In this document: one piece after another, positions 11,342 to 11,686 of the stretch
Layout: each line of letters begins with the position of its first letter
Numbering within the stretch: the stretch's first letter is position 1
Source of the DNA: an uncultured Anaerolineaceae bacterium
Lineage (GTDB): Bacteria; Chloroflexota; Limnocylindria; Limnocylindrales; CSP1-4
Reading direction: 5' to 3'
Length of the DNA: 32,048 bases
NCBI GenBank assembly: GCA_964519845.1
Contig: CAZFLI010000001.1
Coordinates: 1-32,048 of the forward strand
The notes under the pieces: generated by a model
Databases searched by the model: none
Seen by the model: the letters and a program-made list of their open reading frames with translations, nothing else
Told to the model about the DNA's origin: nothing
Made by a program: the position numbers and the translations under genes

Positions 11342-11351
11342 GCGGCCCTCT

Positions 11352-11381
11352 TGCGCGATCCCCCTCGCCGACCTTACACTT
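11352..11381 (+). promoter_or_regulatory. Candidate sigma-70/sigA-type promoter of the met leader (-35 TTGCGC, 18-nt spacer, -10 TACACT)
   Basis: TTGCGC lies at 11352..11357 and TACACT (TAnnnT) at 11376..11381. The first ATG, at 11391, begins 10 nt after the -10 and has no SD. Confidence 0.35.
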
Positions 11382-11390
11382 CGGCCCCAA

Positions 11391-11501
11391 TGAACACCAG
11401 CACCGTCGGCCGCCAGGAGAACTCGCGCAGGATTTCCACCCTGCGCAGTTCCATGATGTCCATGCCCGGGCGGCCCCGACGTGCGGAGGACGGGGTCTGA
11501 G
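11391..11501 (+). other. Candidate near-leaderless leader mini-ORF (36 codons) containing M-M-S-M
   Basis: My translation is MNTSTVGRQENSRRISTLRSSMMSMPGRPRRAEDGV followed by a stop (TGA 11499..11501). It is too short for the track. Chance ORFs of this length are common in GC-rich DNA. Confidence 0.25.
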
Positions 11502-11545
11502 GTCTCGCTAGCCTGAGCGCAGCAGACCGAAGATCGGTCCCGGGG

Positions 11546-11576
11546 CCGCGGTTCCACAGAACCGCGGTTCTTTGTT
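11546..11576 (+). terminator. Intrinsic-terminator-like hairpin in the metY leader (CCGCGGTTC-caca-GAACCGCGG followed by TTCTTTGTT)
   Basis: It has a 9-bp perfect GC-rich stem (11546..11554 pairing with 11559..11567), a 4-nt loop and a T-rich tail at 11568..11576. It lies about 110 nt upstream of the metY start and about 205 nt downstream of the preceding stop. Confidence 0.65.
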
Positions 11577-11686
11577 ACTCCGGACGACACGACGGGCAGC
11601 CGCCGAACTGCCGCCCTCCCCCAGGGCACCCGGGACCCGTTGAGCGAACCTCTGCCGCGCAGGCGGCGCGTCCCAAGGAGAAACCC

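Follow-up and report, generated by a model that had tools for sequence, protein, structure and literature searches.

We report that the 345-nucleotide (nt) spacer in front of metY in a stretch of Chloroflexota DNA most probably acts as a ribosome-mediated leader-peptide transcription attenuator, which would sense the charging of Met-tRNA and, in many relatives, of Cys-tRNA as well. The stretch, called the window below, comprises positions 1 to 32,048 of contig CAZFLI010000001.1 (assembly GCA_964519845.1) from an uncultured Anaerolineaceae bacterium that GTDB places in the Limnocylindria. The leader holds a 36-codon open reading frame (ORF) with a cluster of Met codons, followed by RNA that can adopt two mutually exclusive folds, one of which is an intrinsic terminator. 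To judge by its sequence, it is a member of a family, specific to this lineage, whose single RNA chassis is fitted with codons for Met, Cys or Lys. Over the exact pairing scheme of the attenuator we are evenly divided.

The spacer occupies positions 11342-11686: the preceding ORF (10565-11341) stops at 11341 and metY starts with a GTG at 11687, ends that confirm the length given in an earlier note made from the letters of this DNA. Our translation of 11390-11500 is likewise identical to the peptide read there, and the Shine-Dalgarno (SD) sequence AAGGAG that the note placed before metY is present. Features are listed in the table further below. Within the ORF, the first base of the final Met codon lies 8 nt before the start of the box that we call S1, and the stop codon at 11498 sits within the 5' strand of the antiterminator. 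Upstream, an alignment of 25 leaders keeps the -35 hexamer TTGCGC and the -10 hexamer (TACACT or TATGCT) while the spacer between them varies. A scan for the sigma-70 consensus called no promoter at the leader, the pair TTGCGC/TACACT falling below its threshold, so that the promoter, which the earlier note had thought plausible, is predicted from the conservation of both hexamers. Because only 9 nt separate the -10 hexamer from the ATG (9-10 nt in orthologues) and no SD precedes it, we predict that the ORF is leaderless, or almost so. The same -35/-10/ATG geometry recurs in the Lys and Cys leaders described next.

The strongest argument for the ORF as a sensor comes from paralogous leaders on the same chassis. 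Further along the window, a leader followed by dapB and dapA contains the ORF MTAHPLGLPKFKRWRPRRMAGPRG, which encodes K-F-K immediately ahead of TGGCGGCCCCG, and a terminator consisting of the shoulder CCGGGGCCGCG and then TTCTTCTAT. Lys-class orthologues encode K-P-K-x-K or K-I-K, and we regard this leader as a candidate lysine-sensing leader-peptide attenuator. A third leader, with the ORF MRSNMHACSCTPRRPRRRR, is leaderless by layout and encodes C-S-C ahead of the box; the genes downstream of it specify serine acetyltransferase and cysteine synthase (cysE-cysK), and C-x-C is encoded in 20/20 Cys-class leaders fetched. The strict pattern GGCGGCCCC-N45-75-CGGGGCCGCG matched the 2.1-megabase (Mb) assembly twice and its reversed control not at all; with the shoulder relaxed by one base there were three matches in the assembly, the third on contig C63, and one in the control. 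A search of the whole genome for terminators preceded by a box complementary to them was too strict and recovered neither the Lys nor the Cys leaders. Overall, the chassis is present in 50 of 51 genomes of the genus, in three recognisable classes that all conserve the R-P-R peptide motif. In every Met and Lys leader exactly one codon and two bases separate the last regulatory codon from GCGGCCCC; most Cys leaders share this spacing, and 5 of 20 have one extra Arg codon (+11). That the cognate codons switch with the operon on a constant framework argues for a sensor role of these ORFs as ribosomes read them, and the fixed distance from codons to box and the conserved frame point the same way.

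The box and shoulder also stand before other genes. Among L134, L146 and, from another family of the class, L143-L145, they precede either of two genes. Before a cystathionine-beta-synthase/CysK-like gene the leader codons read C-S-C or C-A-C-C. Before a threonine-synthase-like gene with an N-terminal Cys-rich segment the leader ends T-T-M-A-M-P-(G/W)-R-P-R, with Met codons ahead of a ThrC-like gene that could be a methionine-pathway enzyme.

The met leader itself is conserved in 24/24 sampled genomes of the same genus, with a DNA identity of 66-89%. Its orthologues always lie directly upstream of metY in the same orientation, and in this comparison, which the earlier note had proposed, its view of the spacer as a genuine regulatory leader of metY-metX holds up. 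The leader is missing from 16 genomes of a sister family (1.1-Mb genomes), five of which have only a MetY paralogue at 38-41% identity. An invariant 21-mer, scanned across public genomes with one genome per species, gave 76 matches. About 50 of these lie 240-280 nt upstream of metY in metagenome-assembled genomes labelled Chloroflexi, Chloroflexia or Candidatus Limnocylindrales/Limnocylindria; the others are chance matches in Streptomyces and further GC-rich genomes. The host accordingly belongs to a Chloroflexota lineage, not to the actinobacteria.

In all Limnocylindria orthologues examined the ORF is open, its start and frame are kept, and a TGA or TAG stop stands at the same place. Seven length variants within it add 2, 5, 5, 6, 7, 7 and 7 codons (indels of 6, 15, 18 and 21 nt) and all preserve the frame, unlike indels in the non-coding loops, which have arbitrary lengths. 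Because start, frame and stop are kept and indels come in threes, we read the ORF as probably translated. The peptide is free to vary in its N-terminal half, the C-terminus RPRSAEDGV is conserved, and the main group keeps an S-M-M-x-M cluster, all of its leaders retaining two or three Met codons. Leaders in other genera of the family have about 20 codons and still encode M-C-M or M-A-M. In a divergent subgroup, whose MetY is only 75% identical, a GTG-started ORF right after a different promoter contains M-x-C-A-M-C-P-C-M-G-M, that is, four Met and three Cys codons within 11. Sensing of both sulfur amino acids is plausible, because MetY condenses sulfide with O-acetylhomoserine. The arms of the in-ORF hairpin, a possible pause hairpin, are kept with variants across the main group and are missing from the short leaders of other genera.

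Hairpin loops of relatives' Met leaders also contain a recurrent palindromic insert of the type GAGCGAAAGC...GCTTTCGCTC. It was seen in L015, L020, L021, L023, L031, L038, L049, L051, L057, L062, L066, L070, L094, L099, L105 and L106 and occupies, depending on the genome, either the in-ORF hairpin loop (always in frame, adding 5-7 codons) or the terminator loop. The insert resembles a hairpin element that is small and either mobile or templated.

Downstream of the Met codons, the RNA can form either a terminator or an antiterminator in which S1 pairs with its perfect nine-base-pair complement, S5. We counted helix formation in 53 non-redundant Met leaders and paired cells in an alignment of 39 sequences. 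The S1:S5 helix (nine G-C pairs), the S1:S2 helix and the terminator helix 11542-51:11562-71 can form in at least 89-98% of the 53 leaders. S1, which is common to the Lys and Cys leaders, is invariant in 39/39 aligned leaders, as is S5, and 99.7% of S1:S5 cells (11470-78 with 11541-49) are paired. For the terminator stem, whose core CCGCGGTTC/GAACCGCGG lies at 11546-54 and 11559-67, the figure is 95.6%, with compensatory changes in the upper stem (TTCC:GGAA, CTCC:GGAG, CACC:GGTG). Taken as whole states, the terminator is 90.7% paired and the antiterminator (S1:S5 plus the extended middle hairpin) 91.0%, compared with 30-58% of cells when the 3' partners are slid as a control. Covariation is confined to the middle hairpin, where 6 of 9 core pairs change on both sides, and to the upper terminator stem. 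The pairing of S2 (94.9% of cells) shows no covariation and is degraded in L022, L024, L038 and L099. S2 can alternatively be part of the extended middle hairpin, which belongs to the minimum-free-energy fold in both states and whose stem still forms in the divergent subgroup from a wholly different sequence. An ACCGA/TCGGT hairpin lies at 11526-30 and 11534-38. The hairpins and terminator listed in the earlier note are all present, its hairpin coordinates being one base off. A 359-nt stretch folds with z = -3.3 relative to shuffles.

Computed energies favour each fold in turn as the transcript grows. For nascent RNA 11466-11558, the S1:S5 fold is the minimum-free-energy structure at -47.0 kcal/mol, and the best alternative, with S1:S2 forced, reaches -35.9 kcal/mol. 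Once the transcript extends to the U-tract, the minimum becomes the terminator fold at -58.4 kcal/mol, with the S1:S5 fold at -53.8; the edge of the terminator with its 3' arm present is only 4.6 kcal/mol. Such energetics would suit a kinetic attenuator of the usual design, in which the antiterminator forms first if S1 is free and the terminator's edge is small.

We infer from these features where transcription starts, that the ORF is translated, the timing of events, a response to methionine and termination at the U-tract. Transcription would begin at, or within about 3 nt of, the ATG at 11390, and the 36-codon ORF would be translated without an SD. The nascent RNA would then choose between two exclusive folds: a long irregular hairpin, in which S1:S5 closes around the middle hairpin (antiterminator), or the terminator, in which S5 pairs with 11559-71 instead of S1. 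When Met-tRNA is scarce, the ribosome would stall at M-M-x-M, leaving S1 free to capture S5 as it emerges and allowing read-through into metY-metX. If the A site held the last Met codon, S1 would start about 12 nt (+12) from the first P-site base, just outside the mRNA channel of the ribosome, whose helicase acts near +11. When methionine is plentiful, the ribosome would pass over S1 (codons R-P-R) to the stop at 11498 and block the antiterminator; S5 would pair with the 3' arm, the terminator would form and transcription would end near 11574-78.

Several observations weigh against this account. S1 and S5 are invariant, so the key helix is without covariation support, and invariance at synonymous sites across the class may reflect an additional constraint, from the peptide, a protein or a ligand, beyond the model. 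Two trp-like 2:3 pairings, UGCGG 11482-86 with CCGCG 11546-50 and CGGGGU 11491-96 with GUCCCG 11537-42, are formable in at least 89% of the 53 leaders and could be the true antiterminator; the resulting fold falls short of the S1:S5 fold by about 9 kcal/mol, and we keep it as an alternative. When equilibrium folds are computed with the ribosome masked, a terminator present in full prevails wherever the ribosome stands. Cutting the transcript before the 3' arm and forbidding pairs across the ribosome produces a modest trend and no clean switch: pairing of the terminator arm drops modestly when the ribosome is beyond the Met codons. In the Met and Lys classes, a ribosome that pauses at the stop codon would have left S1 uncovered in its wake; timing or steric exclusion would then have to be invoked, and since the initiator tRNA needs methionine too, severe starvation would also affect loading of the leader ORF. 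Finally, a search for a general upstream partner of S1, which would act as an anti-antiterminator, found complementarity across classes and genera no better than shuffled. One candidate for that role, GUCGGCCGCCAGG (11405-18), pairs well with the S1 flank here and was dropped since it is not general.

A bolder extension of the attenuator model, which we consider doubtful, is that the Limnocylindria carry a modular family of leaderless attenuators on one invariant chassis, the sensed amino acid (Met, Cys, Lys and perhaps Thr) being set by swapping two or three codons. The chassis would comprise the regulatory codons, one spacer codon and a box GGCGGCCCCG (R-P-R) that pairs with the terminator shoulder GGGGCCGCG. 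Here, R-P-R(R) would in addition be a ribosome brake or the site of a trans-acting factor that holds the ribosome on the antiterminator strand, as suggested by the invariance of box and shoulder at synonymous sites. If true, this brake or factor site would be a mechanistic element lacking in the classical trp model.

The conserved R-P-R motif enters into another explanation, in which the leader peptide acts otherwise: through nascent-chain arrest via (W/G)-R-P-R-(R/S), or through control of the metY SD via the CUCC block behind the terminator, the terminator being a constitutive damper. We think this unlikely. The motif is conserved in all three leader classes, and both the metY SD and GGAGGA in the leader are possible partners of the anti-SD-like CUCCG; short Cys ORFs of mycobacteria, according to the abstract of a preprint, act on access to the ribosome-binding site (bioRxiv 10.1101/834739). 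Set against this, a perfect S1:S5 helix shares sequence with the terminator arm, and less than 5 kcal/mol separates the two folds, which argues for regulated termination, and the CUCC block is lacking in the Lys leaders. On the attenuator model, the conserved CUCCG might bring in control of translation as a second layer: in the read-through part, RNAalifold joins CUCCG to the metY SD, and the block UACUCCG can pair with that SD or with CGGAGGA in the leader (11484-90), the latter seven-base-pair helix being formable in at least 94% of the 53 leaders.

Methionine genes are known to be controlled by riboswitches for S-adenosylmethionine (SAM), by T-boxes or by repressors, and SAM riboswitches are the usual controllers of metY and metX in many Gram-positive lineages. 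Rfam at its gathering score places no family in the leader region. A cmscan of 11250-11760 with all 4227 Rfam models at E<=10 returned neither a SAM riboswitch class nor a T-box, its only match being a spurious CRISPR-DR28 (E = 6.8). SAM riboswitch identity (SAM-I, -II, -III, -IV, -V, -VI and SAM/SAH) and a T-box leader are accordingly ruled out. The earlier note had seen no recognisable SAM core, proposed this covariance-model check and called the missing core notable; the absence stands, and what takes its place as the sensor is probably the mini-ORF, whose Met codons, frame and fixed distance to the antiterminator strand are conserved. Its description of a structured, unclassified leader holds in that the leader is real and lies outside the catalogued riboswitches and T-boxes, and "unclassified" gives way to leader-peptide attenuator as the probable identity.

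A new riboswitch or protein-binding leader, in which a ligand (e.g. SAM) or a protein picks the fold and the ORF is incidental, is in our view very unlikely. Its binding region would be the invariant 33-nt GGCGGCCCCGAAGUGCGGAGGAYGGGGUCUGAGG together with GGUCCCGGGGCCGCGG. Invariance does extend to synonymous sites and to the hairpin loop, across MetY proteins only 75% identical, S1 and S5 never covary, and known SAM riboswitches are largely lacking in the lineage: among five genomes of the genus, SAM-IV occurs in 0/5 and SAM-I in 1/5, as a single element (L147, G005:C12:202856-202953) away from the met leader. However, indels within the ORF keep its frame, its start and stop are conserved, a single ligand would not explain one box that serves Met, Lys and Cys operons with cognate codons, and the region has no Rfam match.

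It is highly improbable that the promoter-to-terminator unit (about 190 nt) is instead a stand-alone small-protein or small-RNA gene acting in trans. It does have all the parts of a transcription unit, and the C-terminus of its peptide, RPRSAEDGV, is conserved; the abstracts of two reports describe attenuator small RNAs and leader peptides with trans roles in Sinorhizobium (PMC6614838, PMC7298713). However, the unit always lies directly upstream of metY in the same orientation, its paralogues obey the cognate-codon rule, and a trans role would add to the cis role rather than replace it.

The remaining alternative concerns the gene upstream. The 258-amino-acid ORF at 10565-11341, which has no match in Pfam or NCBIfam searches, lies between copA and the met leader in this genome only and is absent from the other 23 of 24 orthologous loci. 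copA occurs at 2 of the 24, and in the closest relative it directly abuts the leader. The upstream neighbour thus changes while the leader stays with metY, which assigns the terminator to the metY leader. That the hairpin and U-tract merely terminate the 10565-11341 gene, with a metY promoter downstream of 11576, is scarcely credible, even though the hairpin lies about 200 nt downstream of an ORF on the same strand and is followed by about 105 conserved nt, because promoter, ORF and terminator are retained with metY at the 23 loci that lack the upstream gene, and a consensus scan found no promoter-like site in 11577-11686; on this point the earlier note, which had named such a terminator as fatal to its idea, is borne out.

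Features of the met leader, its operon and two paralogous leaders (window coordinates unless a contig is named)
Feature	Position	Strand	Description
Predicted promoter	11351..11380	+	-35 TTGCGC (11351-56), 18-nt spacer, -10 TACACT (11375-80)
Leader ORF	11390..11500	+	36 codons, MNTSTVGRQENSRRISTLRSSMMSMPGRPRRAEDGV; stop TGA at 11498-11500
In-ORF hairpin	11425-31 / 11440-46	+	GCGCAGG/CCTGCGC, read from sequence
Regulatory codons	11453..11464	+	ATG ATG TCC ATG (M22, M23, M25), the Met cluster
S1 box	11470..11478	+	GCGGCCCCG, codons G-R-P-R; antiterminator 5' strand
S2	11491..11497	+	CGGGGTC; local S1 competitor, 7 bp with 11472-78 (GGCCCCG); ends at stop codon
Extended middle hairpin	11488..11540	+	GGAC:GUCC 11488-91:11537-40; GGUCU:AGAUC 11494-98:11531-35; variable core stem 11501-08:11518-29
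S5	11541..11549	+	CGGGGCCGC; antiterminator 3' strand, overlaps terminator 5' arm
Intrinsic terminator	11542..11576	+	13-pair stem 11542-11571 by terminator scan, then TTCTTTGTT 11568-76
UACUCCG	11576..11582	+	anti-SD-like block directly after U-tract
Conserved read-through blocks	11597..11635	+	CAGCCGCC (11597-604) and CCCCAGGGCACCCGGGA (11619-35), from alignment
SD	11675-80	+	AAGGAG, metY ribosome-binding sequence
metY	11687-12994	+	Pfam PF01053; NCBIfam NF006096 "homocysteine synthase", 730 bits (cut-off 726)
metX	12997-14172	+	NCBIfam MetX models best; Pfam, alpha/beta hydrolase
Lys leader (candidate) before dapB-dapA	14716..14941	+	TTGCGC-17-CATAAT, ATG 9 nt on; predicted leaderless 24-codon ORF
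Cys leader	G000 contig C63, ~6850-7060	-	TTGACG-17-CATCCT, 7 nt, then ATG

In the operon behind the leader, every NCBIfam MetX match to metX is below its cut-off (TIGR01392: 285 bits, cut-off 500). Between the terminator and the metY SD lies the read-through block CCCCAGGGCxCCCGGGA, and the similar CCCCAGGGCG follows the Lys terminator (14910-14925). Elsewhere in the window, a thiamine pyrophosphate (TPP) riboswitch (RF00059) lies at 29860-29968 on the plus strand; it scores 74.2 bits, and the gathering score is 54.3.

Most documented cases of leader-peptide attenuation concern Trp, His, Leu, Thr, Phe and Ile/Val. Our literature search found no methionine leader-peptide attenuator described and none of such elements in Chloroflexi, with subscription journals mostly outside its coverage. 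A Met-codon attenuator would be a new specificity, in which the ribosome reads the methionine supply through the charging of elongator tRNA-Met although initiation needs methionine as well. In an uncultured soil and peat lineage of Chloroflexota, one RNA framework with interchangeable codons would serve Met, Cys and Lys operons, and this codon-swap family makes the design rules of attenuators testable: how far the codons lie from the antiterminator, how leaderless ORFs are loaded and what the R-P-R box does. For annotation, where these genomes have long, seemingly "empty" leaders ahead of metY, cysE and dapB, putative attenuators with small ORFs should be marked.

Compared with the classical attenuators (trpL, hisL, leuL, thrL, pheL and ilvL of E. 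coli and Salmonella; Rfam Trp_leader, His_leader, Leu_leader and Thr_leader), the met leader shares a short ORF with clustered codons for the end product, antiterminator and terminator hairpins that exclude each other, an intrinsic terminator ahead of the first structural gene and a stop codon inside the antiterminator 5' strand. It differs in its proposed Met(+Cys) specificity, in an ORF that has no SD and is predicted to be leaderless, and in its Chloroflexota host. No general "1:2" anti-antiterminator was found upstream of the sensor codons, which lie just before the antiterminator strand and not within a protector strand, and there is no sequence or covariance-model similarity (Rfam, E<=10). 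SAM riboswitches (SAM-I RF00162, SAM-IV RF00634 and relatives) have the same target genes and, like the met leader, an upstream terminator as output, whereas the leader here has no aptamer and its signal would be tRNA charging, not SAM.

For lysine, Tsubouchi and colleagues reportedly described in 2005 a leader peptide in the lysine biosynthetic cluster of Thermus thermophilus. As reported, that attenuator has Lys codons, like the leader at 14716-14941, and differs in pathway (alpha-aminoadipate) and phylum; it is not known to share the chassis.

Two further parallels are leaderless. In Deinococcus deserti, tRNA-synthetase and amino-acid genes are preceded by transcripts that start at AUG and code for short peptides in which one amino acid abounds; transcription attenuation was predicted, and cysS and trpEGD are the cases named in the main text out of 14 such leader peptides (de Groot et al., 2014, PMC4007540). 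These leaders match the predicted layout of ours, leaderless and with predicted attenuation, and differ in that no shared RNA chassis is reported for them (PMC4007540). In mycobacteria, polycysteine short ORFs are leaderless, and a stalled ribosome unmasks a downstream ribosome-binding site with no terminator, according to the abstract of the preprint (Canestrari et al., bioRxiv 10.1101/834739). As described there, they are, like the predicted ORF here, the leaderless first cistron of a sulfur-amino-acid operon and use cognate codons as the sensor, whereas the conserved core here is a strong terminator with an overlapping antiterminator, in another phylum and with unrelated sequences. The mycobacterial "ribulon", several loci read collectively by the ribosome in the account that the same source gives (bioRxiv 10.1101/834739), is in this respect like the chassis family of the Limnocylindria.

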